A stretch of 64,000 nt of DNA from Burkholderiales bacterium (GCA_040007475.1 JBDTVC010000002.1:4921-68920), one strand, 5' to 3'; shown: positions 13,653-29,282, numbered from the stretch's first letter. Made by a program: numbers and translations. The notes: generated by a model from the sequence alone, not told the origin.

Positions 13653-14246
13653 CTACCCGTGACGGATTTCGGTTCCCAGGACATTCAGGCATTCACGAAT
13701 GAACGCCGCAAGCGCCGTCCAGCCCTTGGCTGAGACCATCGTTCCATCCACGTAGGCCTCGGTTGGCGACAGGTCGATGTAGGTGCCGCCGGCGAGTGTC
13801 ACCTCGGGCTCGCACGCGCCCAGGGCGGCAACCTTCTTGCCCCGGACGACGCCGTCGACAGCGACGAGAATCTGCACGCCGTGGCAGATCGTGAAGATCG
13901 GCTTCGCCTTCTCGTGGAAATGCCGGACGATGGCCTGTACGCGCTTGTCGGTACGGATGTACTCCGGTCCGCGGCCGCCGGCGCAGTAGACCGCGTGGTA
14001 CTGGTCGAGCTGCACTTCGGCTTCCGAGAACGTCTTGTTGATCGTGAAGAAGTGGCCGAGCTTTTCCGTGTAGGTCTGGTCACCTTCGAAGTCGTGCAGC
14101 GACGTCTTGATCAGATCACCGGCCTTCTTGTCGGGGCACACGACATGGACCGTGTGTCCCACGGCCTCCATCGCCTGCTGGTACACGAAGATCTCGTACT
14201 CTTCGGTGAATTCGCCGGTCAGCATCAGAATCTTTTTGCCTGGCAT
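13653..14246 (-). CDS. DJ-1/PfpI-family protein
   Basis: 197 aa with nucleophile-elbow Cys in FTICHGVQIL and the typical DJ-1/PfpI length and layout. Confidence 0.85.
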   Translation of the reverse strand: MPGKKILMLTGEFTEEYEIFVYQQAMEAVGHTVHVVCPDKKAGDLIKTSLHDFEGDQTYTEKLGHFFTINKTFSEAEVQLDQYHAVYCAGGRGPEYIRTDKRVQAIVRHFHEKAKPIFTICHGVQILVAVDGVVRGKKVAALGACEPEVTLAGGTYIDLSPTEAYVDGTMVSAKGWTALAAFIRECLNVLGTEIRHG

Positions 14247-14271
14247 GAACTAGTCTCCTTCGGGTTTCGCA

Positions 14272-14290
14272 GGCGGATGCGACATCCGCC
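14272..14290 (-). terminator. Stem-loop after the UPF0261 gene (possible terminator or mRNA stabiliser; no U-tract)
   Basis: GGCGGATG-CGA-CATCCGCC, an 8-bp perfect stem lying between the stop at 14306 and the DJ-1 start at 14246. Confidence 0.3.
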
Positions 14291-14305
14291 CGCTCGGGTG
14301 GTCGG

Positions 14306-15514
14306 TTAGCTCGGCAAGACGGAACGCAACGTCCTGACGACTTCGTCAATGAACAAGCGGTCGTTGATGTGCGCGGCCACGCGCACCACACGGCGATCGT
14401 CGGTCTGCTTTACACCTGACGTGATGGCGTCGAACAGCGCGGCGTCGGCCTGCGGCCACCAGAATGGATGCCCCGGCGCGTCGAGCGCCGAGACACCACC
14501 TTCGGGGATCAAGAAGCGCACGGTCCCCTGCATCCGGTTCAGCCGCTCGGCGATCCAGGTGCCGATACGGCGGTTCTCGTCCGGCGTCGTTCGCATCAGC
14601 GTGACGTTGGCGTTGTGGACGTGGAACAACCGACCATCGAACGCGTTCGGCACGCTGTCGCGCGCCCAGAAGTTGACCATGTCGAGCGCGCCGCACGAGC
14701 CCACGTACGGCAAGGCACGCCGGGCCGGCGCACCGAGCCGGTCGTCGCCCGCGCTCAGCACGCCCCCGCACAGCAGGTCGGCGATCTCGGTCGTCGTCAG
14801 GTCCACCATCGCCGCGAGGTGGCCGTCGTCGGCGAGCTTCTCGAGGCTTTGCCCGCCCGCACCGGTGGCGTGGAACACGAGGCATTCGAATTCGCGCTGG
14901 AGTGCCTCGGTCACGCCTTGAACGCAGGGCGTCGTCACGCCGAACATCGACAGGCCGATCGCGGGGAGGGCGTTCGGAGCACTGGTCAGTGGGGCCGCCA
15001 CCATCCCGGCCATCGCGTGCGCGGCATTGGCCAGCACCAGGCGCGAGATGCGGTTGAGGCCCGACACGTCGACCACCGGATAGAGCATCGCGATGTCGGA
15101 GCTGCCCACATAGGGCCGCACGTCGCCCGATGCGAGCGTGCAGACGAGCAGCTTCGGCAGCCCCACCGGCAGCGCACGCATCGCGGGGCTGACGAGCGCG
15201 GCCGCGCCCGAACCGCCGGCGCCGATGATGCCCCCCAGGTCGGCGCGCTGCAGAGCAAAGGCGACAAGCGCCTGCGCCATCGCGTCGACGGCGCTGCCGC
15301 GTTCATGCGTGAACACGTCGGCCGCCGCGCCATGTCGTGCGACCTCGGCGGCGGACACATCGGCGCCACGCTCGGCTGCCGATGAGGTGGACACATCGAC
15401 AGTCACGGTCGCGACGCCGCGGGCCGCGATGCAGTCGCGCAGGAAGAGCAGTTCGTCGCGCTTGGTGTCGAAGGCGCCGACGACGAAGGCGGCGCGCGGA
15501 GTCGGGTGGCTCAC
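14306..15514 (-). CDS. UPF0261 / Tm-1-like ATP-binding domain protein
   Basis: 402 aa. N-terminus [18 protein letters not shown] is typical of the UPF0261 family, which forms the N-terminal half of plant Tm-1. The GTG start overlaps the upstream stop (GTGA). Confidence 0.8.
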
Positions 15515-16344
15515 TCCGACCTCAACGCCTTGTACCGCTCCACGTGCGCCTTGATCGCCAGCTCGGTGGGCAGGCGCTCCATGCTGCTCGCCCCGTAGAA
15601 GCCATTGCAGTGCGCGCTGTGCTTCAGGACATAGGCCACATCCTCGGGCATCGATATCGGCCCGCCATGGGCGATGACGATCACGTCCTTGCGGACCTTG
15701 CGTGCGGCTTCAGCCCATTCGTCGATCAGTTGAACCGATTGCGCCAGCGTCTTGGCCGACGTGGCGCCAATCGTGCCGCCAACGGTCACGCCCATGTGCG
15801 GCACGATGAAGTCGGCACCGGCCTCCGTCATCGCCACCGCCTCGTCGGCGCTGAAGACGTAGGGCGTCGTCAGCAAGTCGAGTTCGTGCGCCTGGCGGAT
15901 CATGTCCACCTCGGTCGAGAAGTTGATGCCTGTCTCTTCGAGGCCTTGGCGGAAGGTGCCGTCGATGATGCCGATCGTCGGAAAGTTCTGAACACCCGAG
16001 AAGCCCAACTCCTTCAGGCGCCGCAAGAACGCGGGCATGATGACGAACGGGTCGGTACCGTTCACGCCCGCGATCACCGGCGTGTGCTTGACGATCGGCA
16101 GCACTTCGCCTGCCATGTCGAGCACGATGTCATTGGCATTCCCGTACGCCAGCATCCCGGCCAGTGACGCGCGCCCGGCCATCCGGTAGCGGCCCGAGTT
16201 GTAGATGACGATCAGGTCGATGCCGGCCGCCTCTTCGCACTTGGCCGAGATGCCGGTGCCCGCGCCACCGCCGATGATGGGCTTTCGCCGCGCCACCATC
16301 GCATTGAACTTGCGCATCAGCGCCTGACGATCGAATCTCGCCAC
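15511..16344 (-). CDS. Phosphoenolpyruvate-hydrolase-like TIM-barrel protein (C-terminal half of the Tm-1 architecture)
   Basis: 277 aa with [37 protein letters not shown] and PHMGVTVGG, characteristic of the PEP_hydrolase (TIM-barrel signal-transduction) family. Confidence 0.8.
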
Positions 16345-16353: not shown

Positions 16354-17667
16354 TCAGCCGGAAAACCGGTTGAACCAGTTCTCCAGCCATTCCTGACGGC
16401 CGGAGACGGGCGGCTCGTCGACGTTGCGTTGCAGCGCGTGCGCGGCTGCGGCAGCAAGGTCGGCGCCGAGCAACTCGTGACCCAGGTCGCCACGCCAGCC
16501 CGCATAGCGCTCCGAGACGAACCGCGCGTGGCCGCCGTCGTCGATCATGGCCTCCGCTGCCAGCAGCGCGCGCGCACAAAGATCCATCGCGCCGATGTGT
16601 CCGTGAAACATGTCTTCGGCGTCGATCGAGGGCCGCCGCACCTTGGCGTCGAAGTTGACACCGCCAGTCGTGAAGCCGCCGCCCTGCATGATGGTGTACA
16701 TCACCAGCGCCATCTCGCCCAGGTTGTTCGGGAACTGGTCGGTGTCCCAGCCGCACTGCATGTCGCCGCGGTTCATGTCGATCGAGCCGAAAATGCCGAG
16801 CGCTTGCGCGGTCGCGATCTCGTGCTCGAAGCTGTGCCCGGCGAGCGTCGCGTGATTGCCTTCGATGTTGACCTTGACCTCGTTCTCGAGCCCGTTCTTT
16901 TGCAGGAAGCCGAAGACGGTGGCGACGTCGAAGTCGTACTGGTGCTTGGTGGGCTCGCGCGGCTTGGGCTCGATCAGGATCGTGCCCTTGAAGCCGATCT
17001 TGTGCTTGTGCTCGACCACCATCTGCATGAAGCGTCCGAGCTGCGCAAGCTCCTGCTTCAGGTCGGTATTCAGCAGCGTTTCATAGCCCTCGCGCCCGCC
17101 CCACAGCACGTAGTTCTCGCCGCCGAGCTTCAGCGTGGCTTCCATCGCTTCCTTCACCTGCAGCGCGGCGAGCGCGAACACCTCGGGGTTCGGGTTGGTC
17201 GCCGCACCGCACATGAAGCGCCGGTGGCTGAACAGATTGGCGGTGCCCCACAGCAACTTGATGCCCGTGTCCTGCTGCTTGCGCGCGAGCACGTCGACCA
17301 TGCGCTTGAACAGCTCGACCGACGCCTTGGGCGTACCGCCTTCGGGCGCGACATCGCGGTCATGAAAGCAGTAGTAGGGCGCGCCGAGCCGGGTGAAGAA
17401 ATCGAACGCGGCGTCCGCCTTCGCGAGCGCGGCCTGCCACGGGTCGGCCAGCTGGTGCCAGGGGCGCTGAAAGCTGCCGTCGTACCCGAACACGTCGAAG
17501 CCGTTCCACGCGAAGCTGTGCCAGTAGCAGACCGCAAAGCGAAGCTGGTCTTCCATGCGCTTGCCAAGCACGAGGCGGTCGCGGTCGTAGTGGCGAAAGG
17601 CCATCGGGTTGGTGGTGGCCAGGCCCTCGAAGCGGATGGGCGCTGTGGTCTCAAAGATCGTCGACAT
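16354..17667 (-). CDS. xylA: Xylose isomerase
   Basis: 437 aa with [37 protein letters not shown] and [15 protein letters not shown], the classic class-II XylA signatures. Confidence 0.93.
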
Positions 17668-17748: not shown

Positions 17749-18948
17749 CTACAGCTTTAGCTGTGCGTTGATCCAGCGGCCATCGGCATGGCTGGACTCG
17801 ACCACCGCCTCGATGAACTTCATGCCCAGCGCGCCGTCCTCGACGCCGGGTACCGTGCACGCGAGCGGGTCGGGTGCCGTGCCAGCGAGGCGTGCGTGCA
17901 GCTGGTCGGCCACATCGCGGTAGAGCTGGGCGAACGCTTCGAGATAGCCCTCGGGGTGGCCGCCCGGAATGCGTGTTGCGCGGCCGGCCGCGGCACCCGC
18001 GCCAGGGCCGGCGCGCGTGATCAGGCGCGGCTGCTGACCGAGCGGCGTGAACCACAGCTGATTCGGCTCCTCCTGGTTGAACTCGAGGCCGGCCTTGCTG
18101 CCGTAGATGCGAACCCGCAGCGCGTTTTCGTTGCCCGGCGCCACCTGGCTGGCCCACAGCATGCCGCGCGCGCCGTTGGCGTAACGCAGCATCACGTGCA
18201 CGTTGTCGTCGAGCCGCCGGCCTGGCACGAAGGTCGTGAGGTCGGCGCTGACCGCGAGCAGCTCAAGGCCGGTGATGTAGCGCACCAGGTGTTCGGCATG
18301 GGTACCGATGTCGCCGAGCGCGCCGCCGGCGCCCGCCCGTGCCGGGTCGACGCGCCACGCGGCCTGCTTGTGGCCGCTGGCTTCGAGATCGGTGCTCAAC
18401 CAGTCCTGCGCGTACTGGGCCTGCACGACGCGAATGTCGCCGAGCTCGCCCGCCGCGACCATCTCGCGCGCCTGCCGGACCATCGGGTAGCCGCTGTAGT
18501 TGTGCGTCAGCGCGAACAGGCAGCCGCTGCGGCGCACCTGCTGCACCAGCGTCATCGCCTCGCCTAGTGTCGTGCTGAGCGGCTTGTCGCAGATGACGTG
18601 CATGCCGACATCGAGAAACGCGCTTGCGATCGGCGCATGCAGGTGGTTTGGCGTGACGATGGCGACGACGTCGATGCCAGCCGGGTGCGCGGCCTCGGCC
18701 TTGGCCATCTGGAGGTAGTCGGCGTAGCTGCGATCCGGCGCGATGTGCAGCTCTGCGGCGCTGGCGCGCGCGCGCGCCGGATCGGACGAGAGCGCGCCTG
18801 CGACGAGCTCGTAGCGGTCATCCAGGCGTGCCGCGATGCGGTGAACTCCGCCGATGAACGCGCCTTGTCCGCCACCCACCATGCCCAGGCGAATGCGTCG
18901 CGGCGTGGCGACGGGCGCGGGGTTGGTCTGTGTCGATTCGATAGGCAC
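17749..18948 (-). CDS. Gfo/Idh/MocA-family NAD(P)-dependent oxidoreductase
   Basis: N-terminal Rossmann motif IRLGMVGGGQGAFIG and the EKP-like CDKPL motif; 399 aa. Confidence 0.85.
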   Translation of the reverse strand: MPIESTQTNPAPVATPRRIRLGMVGGGQGAFIGGVHRIAARLDDRYELVAGALSSDPARARASAAELHIAPDRSYADYLQMAKAEAAHPAGIDVVAIVTPNHLHAPIASAFLDVGMHVICDKPLSTTLGEAMTLVQQVRRSGCLFALTHNYSGYPMVRQAREMVAAGELGDIRVVQAQYAQDWLSTDLEASGHKQAAWRVDPARAGAGGALGDIGTHAEHLVRYITGLELLAVSADLTTFVPGRRLDDNVHVMLRYANGARGMLWASQVAPGNENALRVRIYGSKAGLEFNQEEPNQLWFTPLGQQPRLITRAGPGAGAAAGRATRIPGGHPEGYLEAFAQLYRDVADQLHARLAGTAPDPLACTVPGVEDGALGMKFIEAVVESSHADGRWINAQLKL

Positions 18949-18984: not shown

Positions 18985-20040
18985 TCAGGCGATGCCGAGC
19001 ATCTTTTTGTTCGCGGCCGTGTTCACCCCGTTGCCCGCGAAGTCGTCGAACGCGCGGTCTGCGACGCGAATGATGTGGTCGCGCACGAAGGCCGCACCTT
19101 CCCGCGCACCGTCCTCCGGGTGCTTGATGCAGCACTCCCACTCCACCACTGCCCAGCCGGGGAAGTTGTAGCCCGCCATCTTCGAGAAGATGGCACCGAA
19201 GTCGACCTGCCCGTCACCCAGCGAGCGAAAACGACCGGCACGCTTGAGCCAGGGCTGAAAGCCGCCATACACGCCTTGCTTGCCAGTCGGGTTGAACTCG
19301 GCGTCCTTCACGTGAAAGATCTTGATGCGGTCGTGATAGCAGTCGATGTAGTCGAGGTAGTTCAGCTGCTGCAGCACGAAGTGGCTCGGGTCATAGAGCA
19401 AGCAGGCGCGCTTGTGGTGGCCTACGCGATCGAGGAACATTTCGTAGGTTTCGCCGTCGTGCAGGTCTTCGCCGGGGTGGATCTCGTAGCAAACATCGAC
19501 GCCGGCAGCATCGAACGCATCGAGGATGGGGCGCCAGCGCCGGGCGAGCTCGTCGAACGCCTCTTCGATCAGGCCGGCCGGGCGTGGCGGCCACGAGTAG
19601 AGGTACGGCCACGCCAGCGCACCGGAGAAGCTCGCGTGCGCGGTGAGCCCGAGGTTGGCCGAGGCCTTGGCCGCCAGCATCATCTGCTCGACCGCCCATA
19701 TCTGGCGCCGCACCGGATCGCCGCGCACCTCGGGCGCGGCGAAGCCATCGAAGCCCGCGTCGTATGCAGGGTGAACGGCGACGAGCTGGCCTTGCAGGTG
19801 GGTCGACAGCTCGGTGAGTTCGAGCCCGTGCTGCGCGAGCGTGCCCTTGATCTCCTCGCAGTAGGTCTTGCTCTGTGCGGCCTTCTGCAGATCGAACAGC
19901 CGGCCGTCCCAGCTCGGCATCTGAATGCCCTTGTACCCGATGCTGGCGGCCCACTTGGCGATCGAGTCCAGGGTGTTGAAGGGTGGTGTGTCGCCGGCGA
20001 ATTGCGCGAGAAAAAGGGCCGGGCCCTTGATGGTCTTCAT
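18985..20040 (-). CDS. Sugar phosphate isomerase/epimerase (xylose-isomerase-like TIM barrel)
   Basis: 351 aa. This is the usual partner of the Gfo/Idh/MocA gene immediately downstream. Call based on TIM-barrel family features (YEIHPGED, LGDGQVDF). Confidence 0.75.
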   Translation of the reverse strand: MKTIKGPALFLAQFAGDTPPFNTLDSIAKWAASIGYKGIQMPSWDGRLFDLQKAAQSKTYCEEIKGTLAQHGLELTELSTHLQGQLVAVHPAYDAGFDGFAAPEVRGDPVRRQIWAVEQMMLAAKASANLGLTAHASFSGALAWPYLYSWPPRPAGLIEEAFDELARRWRPILDAFDAAGVDVCYEIHPGEDLHDGETYEMFLDRVGHHKRACLLYDPSHFVLQQLNYLDYIDCYHDRIKIFHVKDAEFNPTGKQGVYGGFQPWLKRAGRFRSLGDGQVDFGAIFSKMAGYNFPGWAVVEWECCIKHPEDGAREGAAFVRDHIIRVADRAFDDFAGNGVNTAANKKMLGIA

Positions 20041-20111
20041 CGGTGTCTCCGTCGTCCGAAGTTGTGCGCTGCGGGCTGCATGATGCGACCGAAAACGACC
20101 GAGGTCAATAT

Positions 20112-20124
20112 CTGGTCAGACCAG
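20112..20124. promoter_or_regulatory. FadR/GntR-type operator palindrome 1 (CTGGTCAGACCAG)
   Basis: Perfect 13-nt palindrome CTGGTC-A-GACCAG that abuts the -35 hexamer. An identical copy lies 45 bp downstream. Confidence 0.65.
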
Positions 20125-20153
20125 TTGACATGGCATTTTCGAGCTTGTATTCT
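20125..20153 (+). promoter_or_regulatory. Sigma70-type promoter of the ABC-transporter/enzymes operon
   Basis: TTGACA (20125..20130), a 17-nt spacer, then TATTCT (20148..20153). It lies 76 nt upstream of the SBP start codon. Confidence 0.6.
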
Positions 20154-20156
20154 TTG

Positions 20157-20169
20157 CTGGTCAGACCAG
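20157..20169. promoter_or_regulatory. FadR/GntR-type operator palindrome 2 (CTGGTCAGACCAG)
   Basis: Identical 13-nt palindrome starting 4 nt after the -10 hexamer, covering the expected transcription start. Confidence 0.65.
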
Positions 20170-20229
20170 ATCAAGGGATGACCCAACCACGTGCGGCCTG
20201 GCCGCGAAGATGGACAAAGGAGACAGCGC

Positions 20230-21537
20230 ATGGCCATTAGACTTTCCAAGCTCGTCGCAGCCGCAGCGCTGTTGGCGTTTGCTCAGCTGGGGCACGCCCA
20301 GCAGAAGTTGACGATCCTCTGGGCTCAGTGGGATCCCGCAAACTATCTGCAGGAGTTGGTCAAGGACTACGAGAAGCAGACCGGCACCAAGGTGGTGGTC
20401 GAGACCACGCCTTGGCCGGACTTTCAAAGCAAGGCGTTCAAGGAGTTCACGGCCAAGGGCTCGGCCTACGACATGGTGGTGGGTGACTCGCAGTGGCTCG
20501 GTGCCGGGTCGACCGGCGGCCACTACGTCGACCTGTCGGACTTCTTCAAGAAGCACAAGGTCGCCGAGACCATGGCGCCGGCCACCGTGAAGGGCTATGC
20601 CGAGTACCCCGGCAACAGCGGCAAGTACTGGGCGATCCCGCTGGAGGGCGACGCCACCGGCATGGCGTACAGGAAAGACTGGTTCGAGGACCCGAAGGAG
20701 ATGGCCGCCTTCAAGGCCAAGTACGGCTATGAACTCGGCGTGCCCAAGACCTGGAAGGAGCTTGGCGATATCGCGGAGTTCTTCCACCGGCCGACCGAAA
20801 AGCGCTATGGCCTGACGATCTACACCGACAACAGCTATGACGCGCTTGTCATGGGCGTGGAGAACGTGATCTTCAGCTTCGGCGGTGAGCTGGGCGACTA
20901 CGCCACCAACAAGGCAAGCGGCATCATCAACACGAAAGAGAACATCGAGGCGCTGAAGTTCTACAAGAGGCTCTACGGCTACACGCCGCCCGACTGGGGC
21001 AAGACCTTCTTCCAGGAAGCAAACCAGGCCATGACCGAAGGACTGGCGGCGATGAGCATGAACTTCTTTGCCTTCTTCCCGGCGCTGGCCAACGAGAAGA
21101 CCAACAAGTACGCCAAGGTCACCGGCTATTTTGCGATGCCCAAAGGGCCGACCGGCAAACAGTTTGCAGCGCTCGGCGGGCAGGGCATCTCGGTGGTGTC
21201 GTACTCGAAGAACAAGGACGCCTCGATGAAGTTTCTCGAGTGGTTCGTGCGCGAAGACGTGCAGAAGAAGTGGGGCGAATTGGGGGGCTACACCTGCAAT
21301 GCAGCGATTCTGAAGTCTGACGCATTCCGCAAGGCGACGCCCTACAACGAAGCCTTCTACCAATCGATGTTCATGGTCAAGGACTTCTGGGCCGTGCCTG
21401 AATACGCCGAACTTCTGACCGCTGCCAACAAGCGCTGGCATCCGTTCGTCGTCAGCGGCAAGGGGAGCGCCGAGGAAGCAATGAACGGGCTCGAGAAGGA
21501 CTGGACGGCTACCTTCAAGAAGTACGCCAAGAAATAG
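20230..21537 (+). CDS. ABC transporter substrate-binding protein (family 1, carbohydrate/polyol type)
   Basis: Signal peptide MAIRLSKLVAAAALLAFAQLGHAQQ and about 435 aa. The start is preceded by AAGGAGA. The track ORF starts at an upstream GTG (20191). Confidence 0.85.
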   Translation: MAIRLSKLVAAAALLAFAQLGHAQQKLTILWAQWDPANYLQELVKDYEKQTGTKVVVETTPWPDFQSKAFKEFTAKGSAYDMVVGDSQWLGAGSTGGHYVDLSDFFKKHKVAETMAPATVKGYAEYPGNSGKYWAIPLEGDATGMAYRKDWFEDPKEMAAFKAKYGYELGVPKTWKELGDIAEFFHRPTEKRYGLTIYTDNSYDALVMGVENVIFSFGGELGDYATNKASGIINTKENIEALKFYKRLYGYTPPDWGKTFFQEANQAMTEGLAAMSMNFFAFFPALANEKTNKYAKVTGYFAMPKGPTGKQFAALGGQGISVVSYSKNKDASMKFLEWFVREDVQKKWGELGGYTCNAAILKSDAFRKATPYNEAFYQSMFMVKDFWAVPEYAELLTAANKRWHPFVVSGKGSAEEAMNGLEKDWTATFKKYAKK

Positions 21538-21614
21538 TGGCCCGACAAGACCGGCGACGCGACATGCGCGTCGCTGGCCTTGCGCTCGGCATCCCTCAAC
21601 TTCCCGTCGTATCC

Positions 21615-22514
21615 ATGGAATCAGCTCTGACCACGCTCAGTCGCGCGGCGTCACCGCGCCGCGGCATGAGTGACCTGGCGATCCGCAACTGGTTCATCAT
21701 TCCGACGATCGTCTTTCTGATCGTCTTCAACATCTTCCCGCTGCTGTATTCGCTGGTCTACTCGTTCACCGACTACCGCGCGTCGATGAACGATCCGGTG
21801 CACTTCGTCGGTCTGGACAACTACCGCGAGCTGCTCGCCGACGACAACATCTGGAACAACTTCACGCTCACGGCGAAGTACGTCATCGTGTCGGTGGTCG
21901 GTCAGGTTGTCGTGGGCTTTGGCGCAGCGCTGCTGCTGAATCGAGCCATCCCGGCCAAGGGCCTGCTGACCACGCTGATGATGCTGCCGATGATGATGTG
22001 CATGGCAGTGGTCGGCCTGTTCTGGCAGCTGCTCTACAACCCGTCCTGGGGCATCGTCAACTACCTGTTCTTCACGGATGGCAAGGAGTGGCTGTCCAAC
22101 GCGGACTGGGCTCTATACGCCGTCGCCATCACCGACATCTGGATGTGGTCGCCGTTTGTGATGCTGCTGTCGCTGGCCGGGCTGTCGGCGATACCGCCGT
22201 CGCTCTACGAGGCCGCCGCGATCGATCGTGCCTCGCGCTGGTTCGTGTTCCGCAACATCACGCTGCCGCTGGTGCTGCCGCTGCTGCTGATTGCCGTGAT
22301 CTTCCGCACCATGGAGGCGTTCAAGACCTTCGACATCGCCTACGTCATGACCAGCATGGACGAGACCGAATTGGCGGCGATACGCCTGTACAAGATGGCC
22401 TTTAACGAATGGCAGACCGGCCGTTCGTGTGCCATGGCCTACATCATGCTGTTGGCCGTGCTGGCGATCACCAACGTCTACGTGAAGTATCTGAACAAGA
22501 TCAAGGAGCGTTGA
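21615..22514 (+). CDS. ABC transporter permease 1 (CUT1 type)
   Basis: Multi-TM protein with EAA-loop YEAAAIDRASRWFVFRNITLP. Start uncertain; 21537, 21564 and 21615 are all possible. Confidence 0.85.
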   Translation: MESALTTLSRAASPRRGMSDLAIRNWFIIPTIVFLIVFNIFPLLYSLVYSFTDYRASMNDPVHFVGLDNYRELLADDNIWNNFTLTAKYVIVSVVGQVVVGFGAALLLNRAIPAKGLLTTLMMLPMMMCMAVVGLFWQLLYNPSWGIVNYLFFTDGKEWLSNADWALYAVAITDIWMWSPFVMLLSLAGLSAIPPSLYEAAAIDRASRWFVFRNITLPLVLPLLLIAVIFRTMEAFKTFDIAYVMTSMDETELAAIRLYKMAFNEWQTGRSCAMAYIMLLAVLAITNVYVKYLNKIKER

Positions 22515-22517
22515 GGC

Positions 22518-23477
22518 ATGGCCATCGTTCAGTCCCGTGCCTCACGCTGGTGGAACCGCGCAGCCATCACCGGTGCGCTGTGCATGCTGGTGATCAGCAT
22601 GATCCCGCTCTACTGGATCGGCTCGACTGCGTTCAAGAACCGCAGCGACGCTGCCACGGTGCCGCCGACCGTTTTCTTCAAGCCCGAGATCACGCCGTTC
22701 ATCAAACTGTTCACGACGCGCGTCCAGGAGCGCGGCAAGCGCGACGAAGCGGCGTACGCGAAGGCGCCCTGGTGGGAACGGGCCGTGATGGACGAGGGCG
22801 ACCGCTTCATCAAGGACGATGACGGCCGCATCGAGAGCTCGGGCTACGTCTCGCGCTTCGTCAACAGCATCATCGTCGCCGTCACCAGCACCTTTCTTGC
22901 CGTGGCCATGGGCACGATCACGGCCTATGGCTTCTCGCGCTTCAAGATGCCGGGCGAGAGCGACTGGTTGTTCTTCATACTCTCGACCCGCATGCTCCCT
23001 CCGGTGGTGGTGGCGATCCCGATGTTCCTGATGTATCGCATGGTCGGGCTGGTGGATACGCACGTCGGGTTGATCATCCTGTACACAGCCTTCAATCTGT
23101 CGTTTTCAGTGTGGCTGATGAAGGGTTTCGTCGACGAGATTCCGAAAGAGTACGAAGAGGCCGCGCTGGTCGATGGCTATACCCGCATGGAGGCCTTCTT
23201 CAAGATCGTGCTGCCCCAGGCGACAACCGGCATCGCGGCCACGGCCGTGTTCTGCTTCATCACGGCCTGGAACGAATACGCCTTCGCGCTGATGATGACC
23301 AACAAGACCGCGCAGACCGCGCCGCCCTATATTCCGTCGCAGCTCGGCTCGGGGCTGACCGACTGGACCGTCATCGCCGCGGGCAGCCTGCTGTTCCTGA
23401 TTCCGGTGGCGCTGTTCACCTTCTTCCTGCGCGCCCACCTCCTGCGTGGTGTGACTTTCGGCGCCATCCGTCGATGA
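22518..23477 (+). CDS. ABC transporter permease 2 (CUT1 type)
   Basis: Multi-TM protein with EAA-loop YEEAALVDGYTRMEAFFKIVLP. Starts 3 nt after permease 1. Confidence 0.88.
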   Translation: MAIVQSRASRWWNRAAITGALCMLVISMIPLYWIGSTAFKNRSDAATVPPTVFFKPEITPFIKLFTTRVQERGKRDEAAYAKAPWWERAVMDEGDRFIKDDDGRIESSGYVSRFVNSIIVAVTSTFLAVAMGTITAYGFSRFKMPGESDWLFFILSTRMLPPVVVAIPMFLMYRMVGLVDTHVGLIILYTAFNLSFSVWLMKGFVDEIPKEYEEAALVDGYTRMEAFFKIVLPQATTGIAATAVFCFITAWNEYAFALMMTNKTAQTAPPYIPSQLGSGLTDWTVIAAGSLLFLIPVALFTFFLRAHLLRGVTFGAIRR

Positions 23478-23674
23478 CTTCCATGAAGAACAACGCTCGC
23501 CGATTCGAATTCCTGAGCATGGTCATGATGATGCTGGGCATCGTCGCGCTGTGCCAGCCGTGGAGCTTGATATTGCATCAGTACAGCGTGCTGATGATCA
23601 TCGTCGGCCTGATCGCATTCAACGTCTTCTCGCGCGTCAAATCGCCAGCGGCGCGTCCGACGGAGACCGACTGA
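23474..23674 (+). CDS. 66-aa two-helix membrane micro-protein, translationally coupled on both sides
   Basis: MTSMKNNARRFEFLSMVMMMLGIVALCQPWSLILHQYSVLMIIVGLIAFNVFSRVKSPAARPTETD has two hydrophobic helices. Its ATG overlaps the permease stop (ATGA) and its TGA overlaps the ATPase ATG (TGATG). It is hidden in the tail of track ORF 23111..23674. Confidence 0.65.
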   Translation: MTSMKNNARRFEFLSMVMMMLGIVALCQPWSLILHQYSVLMIIVGLIAFNVFSRVKSPAARPTETD

Positions 23675-24792
23675 TGGCCGACATCGAGATCATCGACGCG
23701 GAGAAGCATTTCGGTGGCAACCACGTCATCCGCAAGCTCAATCTGCACATCCGCCACGGCGAGTTCGTCGTGCTGCTCGGCCCCTCTGGCTGCGGCAAGA
23801 CGACCACGCTGCGTGCGTTGGCCGGGCTCGAGAGCATCGACTCCGGGGAAATCCGCATCGGCGGTAGACGGGTCGACCAGCTGCCGCCGCAGGAGCGCGA
23901 CACCGCCTTCGTCTTTCAGCTCTACTCGCTCTACCCGCACCTGAGCGTCTTCGACAACATCGCGTTCCCCCTGCGTGCGGCCAACGTGCCCGAAGCCAAG
24001 GTGAAGCAGCAGGTCGACGAGGTGGCGCGTGTCCTCAGGATCGAGCATCTGCTGGGGCGGCGCCCCTCGGCGCTGGCCGGCGGCGACATGCAGCGCGTGA
24101 CGATCGGCCGCGCGCTGGTGCGCCGGCCGGAGGCGATGCTGATGGACGAGCCGATCGGCGCGCTCGATGCGAAGTTGCGCGAAGAGATGCGCACCGAGCT
24201 GCGCCGCCTGCACGTCGAGAACGGCTCGACCACGGTGTACGTGACGCACGATCAGGTCGAGGCGATGTCGATGGCCGACAAGATCGGCATCATGAATGAT
24301 GGTGTGCTGCAGCAGTACGGCAGCCCGACCAAGGTCTACGACGAGCCCGAGAACCTCTTCGTCGCGCAATTCGTCGGCAGCCCGATCATGAACGTGGTCG
24401 ACTGCGGCATCGAGACCGGCGCAGGTGGTTCGCGCGCCAAGCTGGCCGGCATGGCCGAGGGCTTCACGCTCGGGGCCTGCGCCATTGCCAAGCTGCGCGG
24501 GTCTGAGGCGCGCAAACTGGCCCTGGGCATCCGCCCGGAGGCACTCGCCGTGTCGCGTGCACCGAGCGCCGGCGCGATGCCCGGGCGTGTGCACCTGATC
24601 GAACCGATGGGCGCCTACGACATCATCGACATCGCGATGGGCACCGATCGCGCAGACGGTGCTGCCGTGCTGCGCGCCCGCACCACCACCCAGTTCGTCC
24701 AGCGCCAGGGCGACGCAGTGTGGGTGGCGCTCGACGATGCGCGAACCCATTTCTTCGACAAGCAGAGCGGCAAGCTGCTGCGCACCGCATGA
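23674..24792 (+). CDS. ABC transporter ATP-binding protein A (MalK/UgpC-like)
   Basis: Begins MADIEIIDAEKHFGG. Walker A GPSGCGKTT, signature LAGGDMQR (a variant of LSGGQ), Walker B LMDEP, and a C-terminal regulatory domain. Trimmed from track ORF 23551. Confidence 0.9.
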   Translation: MADIEIIDAEKHFGGNHVIRKLNLHIRHGEFVVLLGPSGCGKTTTLRALAGLESIDSGEIRIGGRRVDQLPPQERDTAFVFQLYSLYPHLSVFDNIAFPLRAANVPEAKVKQQVDEVARVLRIEHLLGRRPSALAGGDMQRVTIGRALVRRPEAMLMDEPIGALDAKLREEMRTELRRLHVENGSTTVYVTHDQVEAMSMADKIGIMNDGVLQQYGSPTKVYDEPENLFVAQFVGSPIMNVVDCGIETGAGGSRAKLAGMAEGFTLGACAIAKLRGSEARKLALGIRPEALAVSRAPSAGAMPGRVHLIEPMGAYDIIDIAMGTDRADGAAVLRARTTTQFVQRQGDAVWVALDDARTHFFDKQSGKLLRTA

Positions 24793-25886
24793 CGATGGCC
24801 CAGGTCTCACTCAATCGCATTCAAAAGAGTTTCGGCCCGGTGCAGGCTATCGGTGAGCTGACGCTCGACATTCGCGACCGCGAATTCTTCGTGCTGCTCG
24901 GACCCACTGGCGCCGGCAAGAGCACGGCGCTGCGCTGCATCGCGGGCTTGGAGCAACCCGAATCTGGCGACATCCACATCGCCGGCGAGCGTGTCAACCA
25001 ATGGAGCGCGGCACAACGAGACGTGGCGCTCGTGTTCCAGCAATATTCGCTGTACCCGAACTACACCGTGCGTGAGAACCTCGCCTTTCCGCTCAAGTCG
25101 AAGCTGCGAAGTTTTACGCCGGCCGAAATTGCCGAGCGGGTTGCCAAGGCGGCGAGCACCGTGCGCATCACCCATCTGCTGGACCGCCGCACCGATCGGC
25201 TGTCGGGTGGCGAGATGCAGCGCGTCTCGATCGGCCGTGCCATCGTGCGCGAGCCACGCGTCTTCCTGATGGACGAGCCCCTGTCCAATCTCGACGCAAA
25301 GTTGCGCGAGTTGCTGCGCGCCGAACTCAAGGGCCTGCAGCAGCGTCTGGGCACCACGCTCGTGTTCGTGACGCACGATCAGGTCGAGGCGATGACGATG
25401 GGCGACCGTATCGGCATCCTCAACAAGGGCCGGCTGGTGCAGGTGGGAACGCCTTACGAGATCTACAACTCCCCGAAGAACGCTTTCGTCGCGTCATTTG
25501 TCGGCACGCCTGCGATCAACCTGCTCGATGTGCACCTTGACGCTGGCGGCACCGCTTCTGCCGAGGGCTTGTCGTTCGTGCTCGATGCCGCCACCCGGGC
25601 GACGTTCGCCTCGTTGACGGCGACAAGCGATGGCCGCGTGCGCATCGGCGTGCGGCCCGAAGACGTCCGGCTCGTCGACTCGGGCGGGATGGCCGGCACG
25701 ATCTACGGCGCTGAGCATCATGGCGTGGAGATCATCGCCGTCATCCAGGCTGGCGAGCAGATCCTGCGGGCCACTATCGCGGCCGATTCGCGGATCGTCC
25801 TCAACCAGCCCGTGCAGTTTTCTTTCGTTCAGGACAAGCTTCACTTCTTCGACCCGCTGACAGGCGAGAGCCTGCGTCAGCATTGA
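24789..25886 (+). CDS. ABC transporter ATP-binding protein B (MalK/UgpC-like)
   Basis: Begins MTMAQVSLNRIQKSFG. Walker A GPTGAGKST, signature LSGGEMQR, Walker B LMDEP. ATGA overlap with ATPase A. Confidence 0.9.
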   Translation: MTMAQVSLNRIQKSFGPVQAIGELTLDIRDREFFVLLGPTGAGKSTALRCIAGLEQPESGDIHIAGERVNQWSAAQRDVALVFQQYSLYPNYTVRENLAFPLKSKLRSFTPAEIAERVAKAASTVRITHLLDRRTDRLSGGEMQRVSIGRAIVREPRVFLMDEPLSNLDAKLRELLRAELKGLQQRLGTTLVFVTHDQVEAMTMGDRIGILNKGRLVQVGTPYEIYNSPKNAFVASFVGTPAINLLDVHLDAGGTASAEGLSFVLDAATRATFASLTATSDGRVRIGVRPEDVRLVDSGGMAGTIYGAEHHGVEIIAVIQAGEQILRATIAADSRIVLNQPVQFSFVQDKLHFFDPLTGESLRQH

Positions 25887-25902: not shown

Positions 25903-26793
25903 ATGCCACACATCATCGCCACCCACAACTGGATGCGGCCCGAATCGATCAAGCGCACGATCGAACGGATGAAGCAGACCGGTGTCGACGCGCTCGAGAT
26001 CTCGGGCGAGCCGGACCAATTCAATACGAAAGAGGTTCGTGCGCTGCTCAAGGAGAACGGACGCACCTGTTGGGGCTCCGTGACGCTGACGCTGGGCGAG
26101 CGCAATCTCGCCGCCAAGGACGTGACGCAGCGCGAGAAGACCGTCGACTACATGAAGCGCGTCGTCACTTTTGCGAAGGAGCTCGATGGTCAGATCGTCA
26201 CGCTGGTGCCGGCCACAGTCGGCAAGGTGGTGGCCGATGGCACGCCGGAGGAAGAATGGAAGTGGCTGGTAGATGGCGTGAAGGAGGTGTATGCACACGC
26301 CGAGAAGGCCGGTATCCGCATCGCGATTGAACCGCTGAACCGCTTCGAAACCTACCTGATCAATCGGGGCGATCAGGCGCTTGCGCTGGCCGATGCGGTG
26401 GGGCCGAACTGCGGTGTGTGCCTGGACCTGTTCCACATGAACATCGAAGAGAGCGATATCCACGAAGCCTTCCGCAAGGCGCGCGGTCGCATCTACGACA
26501 TCCACATCGCCGACAACAACCGCTTCGCGCCCGGCATGGGCACGCTCGACTTCCCGGCGATCGTGAAGACGATCAAAGAGACCGGCTACACCGGCGCGCT
26601 CACGCTCGAATTCGTTGCGACGGTCGACCGCACGCCGGCCAACCCCTACGGGGACCAAGTTGAAAAGAACCCGGTCGACGTGTCGCCGGAGCAGATGAAG
26701 TTCATCATCGACCACGGCTCGAACCTGCTCGCCGACACGTTCTATACCGGGCTTTTCGAGCAGTCGGTGCGCGTGCTGCGCCCGCTGGTGTGA
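25903..26793 (+). CDS. Sugar phosphate isomerase/epimerase (xylose-isomerase-like TIM barrel, ketose 3-epimerase-like)
   Basis: 296 aa with IAIEPLNRFETYLIN and LDLFHMNIEE metal-site-like motifs typical of this fold. Confidence 0.75.
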   Translation: MPHIIATHNWMRPESIKRTIERMKQTGVDALEISGEPDQFNTKEVRALLKENGRTCWGSVTLTLGERNLAAKDVTQREKTVDYMKRVVTFAKELDGQIVTLVPATVGKVVADGTPEEEWKWLVDGVKEVYAHAEKAGIRIAIEPLNRFETYLINRGDQALALADAVGPNCGVCLDLFHMNIEESDIHEAFRKARGRIYDIHIADNNRFAPGMGTLDFPAIVKTIKETGYTGALTLEFVATVDRTPANPYGDQVEKNPVDVSPEQMKFIIDHGSNLLADTFYTGLFEQSVRVLRPLV

Positions 26794-26796: not shown

Positions 26797-27291
26797 ATGC
26801 TGTTCGGCCAGCTCTTTCACTTGGCGATCAAGACCGCCGACCTCGATGCCACCGTGCGCTTTTACACCGAGGTCCTGGGTCTGCAGGTGGCCGATCGGCC
26901 GCCGATCGGCTTTCCCGGCGCGTGGCTCAAGCCGGCGCAGGCCGGCGCCGACGCGATCATCCACATCTACGCGGGCGACGCCGCGAAGGAGTCCGACGGC
27001 ACGGTGCAAGCCGGGTCGGGCGCGATCGATCATGTGTCGATGGTGTGCAACGGCTACGGCGATTTCAAGGCGCGGTTCGAGAAGTTCGATCTGCCTTATC
27101 GAGAAAATCTGGTGCCCGGCACGCCGCTGTGGCAACTGTTCGTGCACGACCCCAACGGCATCCAGCTCGAACTCACCTTCCACTCGGCGGGTGAGTCAGA
27201 GGCGGTGCCGGTGATTCCGCGCGAGCGTCTGTATTCGGCGCGCGAGCGCTGGTTTCGGCCGCAGGCGTACCGACAGTTCGCGTCCGGCTGA
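26797..27291 (+). CDS. VOC/glyoxalase-family protein
   Basis: 164 aa. HLAIKTADLDATVRFYTEVLGL is the classic VOC beta-alpha-beta-beta-beta opening. A second module contains IDHVSM. Confidence 0.75.
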   Translation: MLFGQLFHLAIKTADLDATVRFYTEVLGLQVADRPPIGFPGAWLKPAQAGADAIIHIYAGDAAKESDGTVQAGSGAIDHVSMVCNGYGDFKARFEKFDLPYRENLVPGTPLWQLFVHDPNGIQLELTFHSAGESEAVPVIPRERLYSARERWFRPQAYRQFASG

Positions 27292-27335: not shown

Positions 27336-28505
27336 ATGAAGATCACCCGCGTCGATGCCACCTGGCTGAGCGTTCCGATCCCGGAACCCCAGCAGCACGT
27401 CAGCGATTTCGGCACGGCAGCCACGTTCGATACGGCGCTGGTGCGGGTGCACACCGACGCCGGCATTGTCGGCGTCGGTGAAGCGAAGGTGTCGGCCGGG
27501 AGCCCCGGTGACTACCACGGCGTCGTGGCCATCATCAACCGTGAATTTGGCCCGACGCTCGTTGGCCAGGACCCGCGCAACATTTGCCGAATCTGGGAGA
27601 GCCTGTACAGCGGCACGCGCGGCCACTACGCACTGTCGCGAGGTCATGCGTTTCCGGCCCTGGGCCGGCGCGGCGTGTCGATCTCGGCGATCTCGGGAAT
27701 CGACATCGCGCTGTGGGACATCCTCGGCCAATCGCTCGGCGTGCCGGTATGGCAGTTGCTGGGCGGGTGCCAGGCCGAGCGCATGCCGGCCTATGCCTCC
27801 GGCGGCTGGGCCAGCGCCGACAAGATCGGTGAGCAGCTCACGGGCTACGTGGCCAAGGGTGACTTCACGGCGGTCAAGATGCGCATCGGCGTGTTCGACG
27901 GCTCCCCCGGCGCCTCGGCCGAACGCGTGATCGCGGCGCGCGAAGCGCTCGGCCCGAGCATCGATTTGATGGTCGATGCACACGGCAGCTTCACCGTCTC
28001 GGAAGCCAAGCAGTTCAGCCACCTGACGCGCGACTGTGGCCTCGCCTGGTTCGAGGAGCCTGTCAGCGGTGACGACAAGCGCGGCCTGGCCGAGGTGCGT
28101 CGCTTTACCCACACCCCGATCGCGGCCGGCGAAAGCGAATGCACCCGGTTCGACTTCCGCGAACTGATCGAATTGCGCGCGGTCGACGTGTTGCAGCCCG
28201 ACCTCGCGATCTGTGGCGGCATCAGCGAGGCCATGCGCATCTCGGCACTGGTGGGTGCGGCCAACTTGCGGATGGCGCCGCACCTGTGGGCCGGCGCCCC
28301 GGCCTTCGCCGCCGGGCTGCACGTGGCGGCGGCATCGTCGTGCACCCACATCCTCGAATACTCGCTCGGCGCCAACCCGCTGATCCACGAACTGGTAGAA
28401 GAGCGCTTTGCCGTCGTCGGCGGCATGCTCGATATCCCGGACCGTCCGGGTTTGGGCATCACGGTCAAGGAAGATTTCGTCGAGCGGTATCAGAAGGCAA
28501 TTTGA
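27336..28505 (+). CDS. Enolase-superfamily enzyme (mandelate racemase / muconate-lactonising family; likely acid-sugar dehydratase)
   Basis: N-terminal capping domain with barrel metal ligands in MVDAHG, WFEEP and AAGES. It also has DLAICGG and PHLW. Confidence 0.85.
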   Translation: MKITRVDATWLSVPIPEPQQHVSDFGTAATFDTALVRVHTDAGIVGVGEAKVSAGSPGDYHGVVAIINREFGPTLVGQDPRNICRIWESLYSGTRGHYALSRGHAFPALGRRGVSISAISGIDIALWDILGQSLGVPVWQLLGGCQAERMPAYASGGWASADKIGEQLTGYVAKGDFTAVKMRIGVFDGSPGASAERVIAAREALGPSIDLMVDAHGSFTVSEAKQFSHLTRDCGLAWFEEPVSGDDKRGLAEVRRFTHTPIAAGESECTRFDFRELIELRAVDVLQPDLAICGGISEAMRISALVGAANLRMAPHLWAGAPAFAAGLHVAAASSCTHILEYSLGANPLIHELVEERFAVVGGMLDIPDRPGLGITVKEDFVERYQKAI

Positions 28506-28507
28506 AG

Positions 28508-29257
28508 ATGATGGAAGGCCTTGAACAAACCGCACGCTTGCTTGCACTGATTCGGGAGCGTGGCTTCGAGCCGGGCGACAAGCTGCCCTCCGAGCGTGAC
28601 CTCGCGGCGCTGTTCGGCATGAGCCGCAGCGCGGTGCGCGAAGCGCTGATCCGGCTCGATACGCTGCGCATCGTCGAGAGTCGCCCCAAGTCGGGCGTCT
28701 ACCTTCAGCTGTACGGCGCCGAGCGCAGCATCGAGGCGATGGTGCTGTTTGCCGAAACCAACACGCCGCTAAGTGCTGCCGAGGTGGCGCAGTCGGTCGA
28801 GTTGCGCAGCGTGCTCGAGAGCGAGGCGATGAAACTGGCCTGCCTGCGGCGCACCGATGACGACCTCGAGCGGCTGCAAGAGATCCTGCGCGACAGCGAG
28901 GCCGCGATGCAGCGCGGCGAGACGCTGGCCGAGCACGACGCGCTGTTCCACAAGGCCATCGTCGCGGCGACCAAGAACGACGTGCTGCTGCGCTTCATCA
29001 ACGTCTTCTACCTGATGTCGCGTAAGCGCCGCGAAGTCTATTTTCTCGAGCCGCAACAGAGCAAGCGGTCGCACGCCCAGCACCTGCAGCTGTATCGCGC
29101 GATCGAGGCGAAAGACCCTGCGCAGGGGCAGCAAGTGCTGCGGCGCCACCTGAAGGGCGTGGACGCGTACTTCCGCCTGTTCTTTGCCGATGGCGCCGGC
29201 GTCCATGCCACCGCGCCGGTGGCGGCCAAGCGGCAGCGGCGGGTCGTCGGCGCCTGA
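28508..29257 (+). CDS. GntR-family transcriptional regulator, FadR subfamily (FCD domain)
   Basis: Winged HTH PSERDLAALFGMSRSAVREALIRL followed by an all-helical C-terminal domain. Trimmed from track ORF 28139. Confidence 0.88.
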   Translation: MMEGLEQTARLLALIRERGFEPGDKLPSERDLAALFGMSRSAVREALIRLDTLRIVESRPKSGVYLQLYGAERSIEAMVLFAETNTPLSAAEVAQSVELRSVLESEAMKLACLRRTDDDLERLQEILRDSEAAMQRGETLAEHDALFHKAIVAATKNDVLLRFINVFYLMSRKRREVYFLEPQQSKRSHAQHLQLYRAIEAKDPAQGQQVLRRHLKGVDAYFRLFFADGAGVHATAPVAAKRQRRVVGA

Positions 29258-29282
29258 AGGCTTCACGCGCCGAGGAGTGGAC

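Follow-up and report, generated by a model that had tools for sequence, protein, structure and literature searches.

A MarK-related UPF0261 protein with a TIM-barrel partner in a putative 3-keto-glycoside operon of a Burkholderiales bacterium

MarK (Saro_1862) from Novosphingobium aromaticivorans (Hall et al., JBC 2025) is a stand-alone UPF0261 homodimer with the structure 9MPY (PMC12624787). With ATP, which is converted to ADP, it phosphorylates acetovanillone and related aromatics at their phenolic hydroxyl (PMC12624787), and our search of the UPF0261 literature returned MarK as the only member of the family with a reported catalytic activity. The plant protein Tm-1 binds the tobamovirus replicase with ATP and does so not via any known catalysis (PMC5028733, PMC12624787). 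In Agrobacterium, the hydratase AtHYD belongs to a four-step pathway for natural-product glycosides (PMC10628242), which comprises oxidation at C3, β-elimination with release of the aglycone, hydration, and reduction of 3-keto-glucose by an enzyme of the Gfo family (PMC10628242). Here we describe two adjacent genes for a UPF0261 protein and a PEP_hydrolase-like TIM-barrel protein, located at positions 14306 to 16344 of a 64,000-nucleotide stretch of DNA from a Burkholderiales bacterium (GCA_040007475.1 JBDTVC010000002.1:4921-68920). The whole stretch is called the window below, and positions are counted from its first letter. We propose, with confidence that is evenly balanced, that the two proteins are a MarK-type ADP-forming kinase and its TIM-barrel partner, encoded in a GntR-repressed 3-keto-glycoside divergon, and that their target is an enolic or phenolic hydroxyl, either in the imported compound or in an intermediate.

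Both genes lie on the minus strand. The UPF0261 gene (14306..15514) encodes a Tm-1-like ATP-binding protein of 402 amino acids, a putative MarK-type kinase subunit, in which Pfam recognized the N-terminal domain PF06792 (196 bits, E 7e-58, cutoff 27) and the C-terminal domain PF23189, UPF0261_C (288 bits, E 7e-86, cutoff 27). The protein also scored 576 bits against the NCBIfam equivalog NF002673, a model with a cutoff of 520 that is named only 'hypothetical protein'. The partner gene (15511..16344) encodes a PEP_hydrolase-like TIM-barrel protein of 277 amino acids, the whole of which is spanned by PF09370 (417 bits, E 5e-125, profile positions 3-266 of 267). An earlier note on this DNA had described a 4-nt overlap of the two genes directly after xylA, and this was confirmed at 15511-15514, where the letters GTGA hold both the TGA stop codon of the TIM-barrel gene and the GTG start codon of the UPF0261 gene. 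In addition, the GAGGA Shine-Dalgarno-like sequence of the TIM-barrel gene overlaps the xylA stop codon.

The view that the pair represents the split halves of Tm-1 also held. The UPF0261 protein matched the structure of the Tm-1 N-terminal region (3WRY) in the Protein Data Bank (PDB) with 290 bits, and bacterial or metagenomic fusions of the two families exist in both orders, UPF0261-PEP_hydrolase in the proteins P0136 and P0160 and PEP_hydrolase-UPF0261 in P0223. These fusions support the two proteins as a functional unit. Every feature of the Tm-1-like pair family that could be tested was found, namely both UPF0261 domains, a full-length PEP_hydrolase, and adjacency or fusion. In the best explanation, the pair encodes one Tm-1-like enzyme of two subunits whose translation is coupled, and a complex of the two is predicted from the fusions and the coupling.

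The window UPF0261 protein could be aligned to MarK (9MPY) with 195 bits (E 2e-56). The residues D14, T15 and K16 at the ATP site of MarK, of which K16 is needed for activity, correspond to D16, T17 and K18 in the window protein, and T17 and K18 were at least 90% conserved in an alignment of 22 diverse homologues. Furthermore, G195 and H219, which form hydrogen bonds with the phenolic oxygen in MarK, and H304, which stacks on the ring, correspond to G192, H215 and H300. The suggestion in the earlier note that this half is an ATP-binding protein or kinase thus has experimental backing from a homologue, MarK, which turns ATP into ADP (PMC12624787). With the catalytic residues kept and the ketone binder and pocket of MarK changed, the catalytic apparatus of the window protein looks intact in this comparison, and its specificity looks unlike that of MarK. 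Membership in the acetovanillone-kinase group of MarK was ruled out by the leucine at the position of His348 and by an operon without acvCDEF; no acvCDEF or hpeCBAD carboxylase genes were found among the Pfam-scanned open reading frames (ORFs) of the 64-kb window.

The TIM half shares 64% identity (174/272) with Mll9387 (PDB 2P10). As 2P10 has no demonstrated activity, it gives the fold of the TIM half, but not its function. A weak Pfam match to NMO (29 bits) was also obtained, and this similarity to the flavin mononucleotide (FMN)-phosphate-binding region of NMO barrels is the sole, weak hint of a possible phosphate site in the TIM half. An AlphaFold2 model built from a 12-sequence alignment with 85-90% identity had a mean predicted local distance difference test (pLDDT) score of 39 and was unusable.

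Because the window has a G+C content of about 67%, third-position GC (GC3) served to select the real genes, which were then checked against Pfam and NCBIfam. The five minus-strand genes that the earlier note had grouped into an operon with the pair at its distal end were found in that order, with a DJ-1/PfpI gene 59 nt downstream as a possible sixth member. The first gene (18985..20040, minus strand) encodes an AtHYD-like, AP_endonuc_2 TIM-barrel protein of 351 amino acids. The note had called it a TIM-barrel isomerase. It matched the 2-hydroxy-3-keto-glucal hydratase structure 8RO4 over its full length with 585 bits and 240 of 350 residues identical (69%), which showed the predicted protein to be instead an orthologue-grade homologue of the Agrobacterium hydratase. 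This level of identity points to an operon of the 3-keto-glycoside type. The second gene (17749..18948, minus strand) encodes a Gfo/Idh/MocA oxidoreductase with Pfam GFO_IDH_MocA domains, probably a 3-keto-sugar reductase or a glycoside 3-dehydrogenase. Its best PDB match was 3V5N (491 bits), with weaker matches to levoglucosan dehydrogenase 6A3F and to DgpA, and it scored 131 bits against the levoglucosan dehydrogenase model, which has a cutoff of 650; as a reductase or dehydrogenase of the route, it fits by family only. The third gene (16354..17667, minus strand) encodes a xylose isomerase, XylA, of 437 amino acids (TIGR02630, 631 bits against a cutoff of 533; NF003998, 686 bits). No clear β-eliminase was found in the window, and the eliminase structure AtOGE (8BVK) was absent from the PDB matches of a second AP_endonuc_2 protein encoded across the control region.

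Based on these comparisons, the divergon would import a carbohydrate-derived compound and degrade it by the 3-keto-glycoside route under GntR repression. The UPF0261 subunit would act as an ADP-forming kinase on an acidic hydroxyl, enolic or phenolic, and not on the primary alcohol of xylulose, and the TIM-barrel subunit would bind and convert the phosphorylated product. The substrate would be the compound delivered by the conserved ATP-binding cassette (ABC) importer or an early intermediate, and two candidates are the released phenolic aglycone and the enol-containing 2-hydroxy-3-keto-glycal or 3-keto-sugar on which the hydratase would act. A phenolic or hydrophobic aglycone freed by the elimination route, which by analogy would fit the chemistry of MarK and the pervasive SRPBCC neighbours, is a possible if doubtful substrate. 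An enol-bearing 2-hydroxy-3-keto-glycal or 3-keto-sugar would fit the invariant hydratase and seems to us distinctly unlikely. We give similarly low credence to a specific form of this idea, in which the 3-keto-glycoside pathway branches at the pair by phosphorylation of an enol to a phosphoenolpyruvate-like sugar enol-phosphate, which the TIM barrel then converts; the hydroxyl concerned would be chemically akin to the phenols phosphorylated by MarK.

The earlier note had offered another role, in which the pair would carry out the phosphorylation step that the locus lacks, on the ketose produced by XylA, as a non-orthologous replacement of xylulokinase or another ketose kinase. Its remark that the 16-gene locus contains no sugar kinase was borne out, also across the whole window: Pfam searches of essentially all GC3-supported ORFs in the 64 kb found no FGGY, PfkB, ROK or other sugar kinase, and the sole kinase-like gene was a phosphofructokinase at 1186-2445, 12 kb away. 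UPF0261 proteins, moreover, can be ATP-dependent kinases (PMC12624787). The closest homologues came from Burkholderiales (named Burkholderiaceae, Comamonadaceae or Variovorax metagenome-assembled genomes (MAGs)). We looked at their contexts by exact-protein look-ups and compared ten distinct operons with the architecture of the window, that is, hydratase first and divergent from the ABC importer. With the hydratase abbreviated as HYD, the Gfo/Idh/MocA gene as GFO and the TIM-barrel gene as TIM, the window reads HYD-GFO-xylA-TIM-UPF0261-DJ-1. An FGGY kinase gene is present in L009 (HYD-GFO-FGGY-xylA-TIM-UPF0261), L097 (HYD-GFO-FGGY-xylA-TIM-UPF0261-SRPBCC), L004 (HYD-GFO-FGGY-xylA-UPF0261-TIM-DJ-1), L005 and L101 (both HYD-GFO-FGGY-xylA-UPF0261), and the Hyphomicrobiales MAG L054 (LacI-FGGY-xylA-HYD-GFO-AP_endonuc_2-UPF0261-TIM-SRPBCC). 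The remaining operons are shorter, with HYD-GFO-UPF0261 in L001 and L099 and HYD-TIM-UPF0261 in L098. The hydratase thus occurs in 10/10 operons, Gfo/Idh/MocA in 9/10, xylA in 7/10, FGGY and the TIM barrel in 6/10 each, and DJ-1 and SRPBCC in 2/10 each.

These gene orders speak against a replacement of XylB. In six of the seven xylA operons (L004, L005, L009, L054, L097 and L101), the FGGY kinase gene lies directly beside xylA in the company of UPF0261, and three operons (L001, L098 and L099) keep UPF0261 without xylA. The pair therefore coexists with XylB and does not track xylA, a pattern opposite to that of non-orthologous displacement, and by the note's own standard of refutation the phosphorylation role proposed there was not upheld. 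L009 is especially close, with a UPF0261 protein 81% identical to that of the window and the same xylA-TIM-UPF0261 order. The anticorrelation with FGGY expected of an XylB replacement was absent, and co-occurrence with xylA failed in L001, L098, L099, Sinorhizobium meliloti and Rhizobium, the rhizobial loci likewise having the pair without xylA. In addition, the only known UPF0261 substrates are phenolic hydroxyls, and the residues that bind them are conserved in the window protein. The window is the single xylA operon of the seven without FGGY, and both halves of the pair come immediately after its xylA, two facts that favour the replacement. A tblastn search of the window with the FGGY protein of L004 found no remnant (best E = 1.3), and the 81-nt spacer between the Gfo/Idh/MocA gene and xylA has no special structure (z 0.13). 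The absence of a remnant counts in favour of a replacement, and the two results together rule out an xylB scar between these genes. The xylA product of the window is 85% identical to that of L004. Judged from gene content, xylA and xylB behave as an optional cassette. We consider it very unlikely that the pair replaces a ketose kinase, and xylulose itself is an equally improbable substrate.

The proposed kinase and its partner share a control region with a transporter, as the earlier note had recognized: 150 bp (20041-20190) separate the operon from a divergent CUT1-family importer cluster. The palindromic, operator-like site CTGGTCAGACCAG has two perfect copies in the 64 kb, against 0.19 expected, and both are in this region. 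Copy 1 (20112..20124) abuts both -35 hexamers, and copy 2 (20157..20169) lies just downstream of the -10 hexamer of the ABC promoter. An intergenic alignment showed that both CTGGTCAGACCAG sites were kept at the same positions in eight related loci. The candidate sigma-70-like promoter of the hydratase-to-UPF0261 operon (20080..20108, minus strand) consists of TTGACC and CATCAT with a 17-nt spacer, and its hexamers are conserved in relatives. That of the ABC operon (20125..20153, plus strand), found by a promoter scan for hexamers, consists of TTGACA and TATTCT, also 17 nt apart. With their FadR-like half-site arrangement, the CTGGTCAGACCAG sites are most simply explained as the putative operator of the GntR/FCD regulator of the locus, which is likely a repressor.

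The divergent cluster is on the plus strand and begins with a gene for a CUT1-family solute-binding protein (20191..21537; SBP_bac_1), which is 87-90% identical in L001 and L004. Two ABC permease genes (21537-22514 and 22518-23477, together 21537..23477; BPD_transp_1) follow. Between the second permease and the first ATPase, a small hydrophobic ORF of 66 amino acids (23474..23674), read from the translation, shares 1-4 nt with each neighbour. At the same position, L001, L004, L005, L097, L098, L099, L101 and S. meliloti pSymA have an unannotated ORF of 51-72 amino acids, and its product may be a conserved small membrane subunit of the ABC system. The two MalK/UgpC-like ABC ATPases (23674..25886; ABC_tran, OB_MalK, TOBE_2) have their longest ORFs at 23551-24792 and 24720-25886, and their true starts are probably near 23674 and 24795.

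The second AP_endonuc_2 TIM barrel (25903..26793, plus strand), assigned by Pfam, resembles ketose 3-epimerases and the 3-keto-glucoside 4-epimerase YcjR. Its PDB matches included D-tagatose 3-epimerases (about 92 bits) and 6WN6 (80 bits), and it scored 145 bits against NCBIfam IolO, under the cutoff. Downstream on the same strand are genes for a glyoxalase/VOC-fold protein (26797..27291; PF00903), conserved in L001 and L098, and for an enolase-superfamily (MR_MLE) protein that resembles acid-sugar dehydratases in Pfam (27336..28505). For the latter, the NCBIfam dehydratase models all scored under their cutoffs, and the top PDB match, 3OZM, reached only 205 bits. The last two plus-strand genes encode a FadR-type GntR/FCD regulator with GntR and FCD domains and an uncertain start codon (28499..29257) and a D-2-hydroxyacid dehydrogenase family protein (29184..30275; 2-Hacid_dh, 2-Hacid_dh_C), whose true start is probably near 29.28 kb.

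A related arrangement was found on the pSymA plasmid of S. meliloti. SMa1334 (398 amino acids) and SMa1332 are 51% and 68% identical to the UPF0261 and PEP_hydrolase proteins of the window, respectively, and the pair is divergent from an ABC system whose binding protein is 70% and whose permeases are 72-79% identical to those of the window. Compared with their window counterparts, the neighbouring MR_MLE, GntR and 2-hydroxyacid dehydrogenase proteins are 61%, 43% and 45% identical. On other rhizobial plasmids, the pair lies beside CUT1 transporters, Gfo/Idh/MocA oxidoreductases and cupins. The most conserved partner is therefore, by gene context, the importer with the acid-sugar module across classes, and the hydratase within the Burkholderiales.

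This arrangement bears on a different reading, in which the pair belongs to an acid-sugar branch, where it would activate a 2-keto-3-deoxy acid or another enolisable keto-acid related to it, and the genes for the hydratase, Gfo/Idh/MocA and XylA joined the operon later. FCD-type GntR regulators are usually carboxylate sensors, and the regulator of the locus is of this class. S. meliloti has the pair with the orthologous importer, MR_MLE, GntR and the dehydrogenase, and has no hydratase, Gfo/Idh/MocA or xylA. The label 'PEP hydrolase-like' would also suit enol-phosphate or keto-acid chemistry, but this rests on a name only. However, the hydratase is present in 10/10 syntenic operons, and L054 combines the pair with hydratase, Gfo/Idh/MocA and xylAB next to another, LacI-regulated importer, with a binding protein only 28% identical to that of the window. 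No MR_MLE gene was seen in the stretch of L054 examined, and conventional KDG-type kinases are PfkB proteins, whose absence this reading leaves unexplained. We judge the acid-sugar role unlikely, and we see no better prospects for the corresponding substrate, an enolisable keto-acid of the MR_MLE branch, which would fit the S. meliloti locus.

A family search returned 4,077 clusters at 50% identity (E < 1e-3) in bacteria, archaea and fungi, and fused forms in land plants (Tm-1-like). We scored a one-genome-per-species set of 80 loci (51-81% identity) with phmmer; these loci were chosen as the best matches and do not sample the roughly 4,000 clusters at random. PEP_hydrolase was adjacent and co-directional in 74/80 loci, and the order was UPF0261 then TIM in 72/80, so that the TIM-first order of the window is rare. 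Sugar operons accounted for 2/80 loci (L009 and L054). In a neighbour-joining tree, the window, L009, L005 and L001 formed one clade with L004 just outside. The context of the sister group (L003, L007 and L008) is not one of sugar genes: PEP_hydrolase-SRPBCC-UPF0261 is accompanied by branched-chain-type ABC transporters. In Variovorax sp. LT1R16, a hydratase gene 81% identical to that of the window lies 5.8 kb from a PEP_hydrolase-SRPBCC-UPF0261 trio. Together with the S. meliloti and other rhizobial loci, this gives the pair a tie to the chemistry of the window in spite of the wider context. By the tree, the pair of L054 (Hyphomicrobiales) is an independent recruitment into a sugar operon. 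The neighbourhood with sugar genes that the earlier note had wanted surveyed is thus real in one Burkholderiales clade, arose once in the Hyphomicrobiales and is echoed on rhizobial plasmids, but across the family it is a minority context, at 2/80.

In the typical Variovorax locus, the pair is flanked by branched-chain-type ABC and amidohydrolase genes on one side and by flotillin, two SRPBCC and zinc dehydrogenase genes on the other. At 12067-15665 of L020 (Variovorax paradoxus) and in most of L010-L087, genes for flotillin/SPFH, two SRPBCC proteins and a zinc-type dehydrogenase come directly after the pair, and the same L010-L087 loci carry branched-chain-type ABC transporters and amidohydrolases upstream, forming a conserved module. 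Four predicted proteins of 609-755 amino acids (P0120, P0124, P0126 and P0128) have an ABC-transporter ATPase domain fused N-terminal to a full UPF0261; these could be real fusions or read-through gene calls after a branched-chain-type ABC operon. On Azospirillum and Mesorhizobium plasmids (L093 5081-6862 and L094 10857-12686), proteins of about 600 amino acids, annotated in the records as 'phosphoenolpyruvate hydrolase family', adjoin a standard pair, which suggests paralogous or extended TIM-barrel partners.

The DJ-1/PfpI gene mentioned above (13653..14246, minus strand; PF01965, E 3e-31; TIGR01382, 146 bits) is on the same strand as UPF0261 and has its own GGAG ribosome-binding site, and a DJ-1 gene follows the pair in L004 too. 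Between the UPF0261 stop and the DJ-1 start is an 11-bp perfect GC-rich hairpin without a U-tract (14269..14293, minus strand), identified by RNA folding at -27.6 kcal/mol (z -3.3), with 0/200 shuffles as stable. The terminator scan did not call this hairpin, which could be a transcript-stabilising or partial termination element, and its position before DJ-1 makes the membership of this gene in the operon uncertain.

Genes of this kind would suit a damage-control function, in which the pair, the DJ-1/PfpI protein and the glyoxalase-fold proteins detoxify or repair reactive side products of 3-keto-sugars (enones, dicarbonyls) off the main catabolic line. According to two reports (PMC13273386, PMC10628242), 3-keto-glycosides and 2-hydroxy-3-keto-glycals are reactive Michael acceptors. 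The DJ-1/PfpI gene after the pair in the window and L004, the conserved VOC-fold gene in the divergent cluster, and the variable presence of TIM (6/10), DJ-1 (2/10) and SRPBCC (2/10) fit accessory and not core steps. However, only the hydratase gene is more constant in the operon than UPF0261, most genomes with the pair have no keto-sugar genes, and repair activity is known for neither family. Damage control is accordingly a reading to which we assign little likelihood.

Still less credible, in our opinion, is a non-catalytic role for the pair, either as a sensor or regulatory module that binds ATP or, on the model of plant Tm-1, as an antiviral protein. The TIM half carries the label 'TIM-barrel signal transduction' domain, plant Tm-1 works through ATP-dependent binding of the viral replicase with no known catalysis (PMC5028733, PMC12624787), and the wild-type E16 variant of MarK is almost inactive. 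Against these points, the MarK catalytic-site residues are conserved in the window protein, including the activity-restoring lysine, the genes are translationally coupled inside a catabolic operon, and a GntR regulator dedicated to the locus, with putative operators, is already in place. PADLOC defence models matched neither protein of the pair. Anti-phage defence was rejected on the same search, which gave no match for UPF0261, the TIM barrel or DJ-1.

Several observations also weigh against the reading that we prefer, a MarK-type kinase with a TIM-barrel partner acting in the 3-keto-glycoside route. The ketone-oxygen binder H348 of MarK is replaced by Leu344 in the window protein, and the pocket residues Thr196, Phe283 and Ile285 by Val193, Met279 and Asn281; with these changes, the substrate class is not readable from the residues. 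MarK works without a TIM-barrel partner, and an adjacent TIM gene is missing in 4/10 sugar-context operons, which makes the idea of an obligatory partner weak. Our literature search found no functional data for PF09370, COG5564, COG5441 or the two-gene pair, so that the statement in the earlier note that the bacterial pair has no assigned function still applies to the TIM half and to the pair, although MarK has made it outdated for the UPF0261 half. SRPBCC (Polyketide_cyc2) genes occur in 53/80 loci, and the dominant context of the family is non-carbohydrate, so the common substrate may be unrelated to sugars. The presence of the pair and the importer without the hydratase in S. meliloti weakens the link between the hydratase and the substrate. 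An insertion mutant of SMa1334 had no phenotype in symbiosis, the single condition tested (PMC3462710). Finally, phosphorylation of the pentose after XylA by a conventional XylB encoded elsewhere in the genome is an assumption of this reading.

Apart from the locus, three other observations were made in the window. Adjacent plus-strand ORFs at 12123-12485 and 12564-13604 encode the N-terminal FAD/NAD-binding part and the remainder of a flavin monooxygenase-like protein, and it looks as if a frameshift or a sequencing error has broken a single gene in two. A minus-strand ORF at 5957-6859 encodes a peptide chain release factor with PCRF and RF-1 domains but of only 300 amino acids; the N-terminal part probably lies in a different frame, which would agree with the programmed +1 frameshift expected of prfB. 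Two plus-strand genes of the glutamine-synthetase family were also found. The one at 43267-44637 clusters with genes for a C-N hydrolase, a class-V aminotransferase, an aldehyde dehydrogenase, a peptidase C26 and an iron alcohol dehydrogenase, and this cluster resembles a γ-glutamylation locus of amine catabolism; the one at 53584-55122 is followed by ntrB/ntrC-like genes.

The locus matters because it offers a conserved link that can be tested: the pair travels with a 2-hydroxy-3-keto-glucal hydratase and with one particular CUT1 ABC importer, and a probable GntR repressor with a recognizable candidate operator would control both. It also corrects the tempting inference that the pair replaces a missing xylB. 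The module occurs in tractable organisms as well, namely S. meliloti 1021 (SMa1334/SMa1332) and Variovorax. Identification of the substrate would give a function to two large families and extend the recently discovered non-hydrolytic pathways of glycoside cleavage. If the enol-phosphorylation idea were true, the oxidation-elimination route would have an ATP-dependent exit not known before, and the PEP_hydrolase family would gain its first function, one that would extend to plant Tm-1-like proteins.

The pair and its locus were compared with several known systems. With the A. tumefaciens deglycosylation operon (GlycDH, AtOGE, AtHYD and Gfo; PMC10628242; 8RO4, 8BVK), the window shares an AtHYD homologue followed by Gfo/Idh/MocA, and would share the logic of a route that yields an aglycone and a free sugar, whereas no AtOGE-type eliminase or periplasmic GlycDH was recognised in the window. 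Conversely, the A. tumefaciens operon as described has no xylA, Tm-1-like pair or DJ-1, and the window has, in addition, an ABC importer and a module of the acid-sugar type. The S. meliloti 1021 locus (SMa1334-SMa1329) resembles the window in having the pair divergent from an orthologous importer, with MR_MLE, GntR and 2-hydroxyacid dehydrogenase genes alongside. It differs in the order of genes, with UPF0261 and TIM followed by a cupin and an M24 peptidase, and in the lack of hydratase, Gfo/Idh/MocA, xylA and DJ-1.

At the protein level, the TIM half is most usefully compared with Mll9387 of Mesorhizobium loti (2P10), the founding structure of the PEP_hydrolase Pfam family, with which it shares 64% identity over 272 residues; Mll9387 is a structural-genomics entry without demonstrated activity. 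The UPF0261 protein is closer to the N-terminal region of plant Tm-1 (PDB 3WRV-3WRY; PMC5028733), with 290 bits, than to MarK, with 195 bits. The two bacterial genes jointly reproduce the domain architecture of Tm-1, and the fusions P0136 and P0160 do so in the same order; however, the window genes are split, with TIM first in a reversed order, unlike 72/80 relatives, and the known role of Tm-1 in binding the tobamovirus replicase is unrelated to metabolism. With MarK, the window protein shares the two-domain UPF0261 fold, the D-T-K motif and the Gly/His/His contacts to the phenol, and a similar ATP-to-ADP kinase chemistry is expected here from these residues. The settings differ, as MarK is encoded in an acetovanillone operon with acvCDEF carboxylase genes, whereas the window protein has a TIM-barrel partner in a keto-glycoside/xylose operon. 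What is new here is therefore not a new class of enzyme but the occurrence of a MarK-related putative kinase with a TIM-barrel partner in a 3-keto-glycoside/xylose operon.

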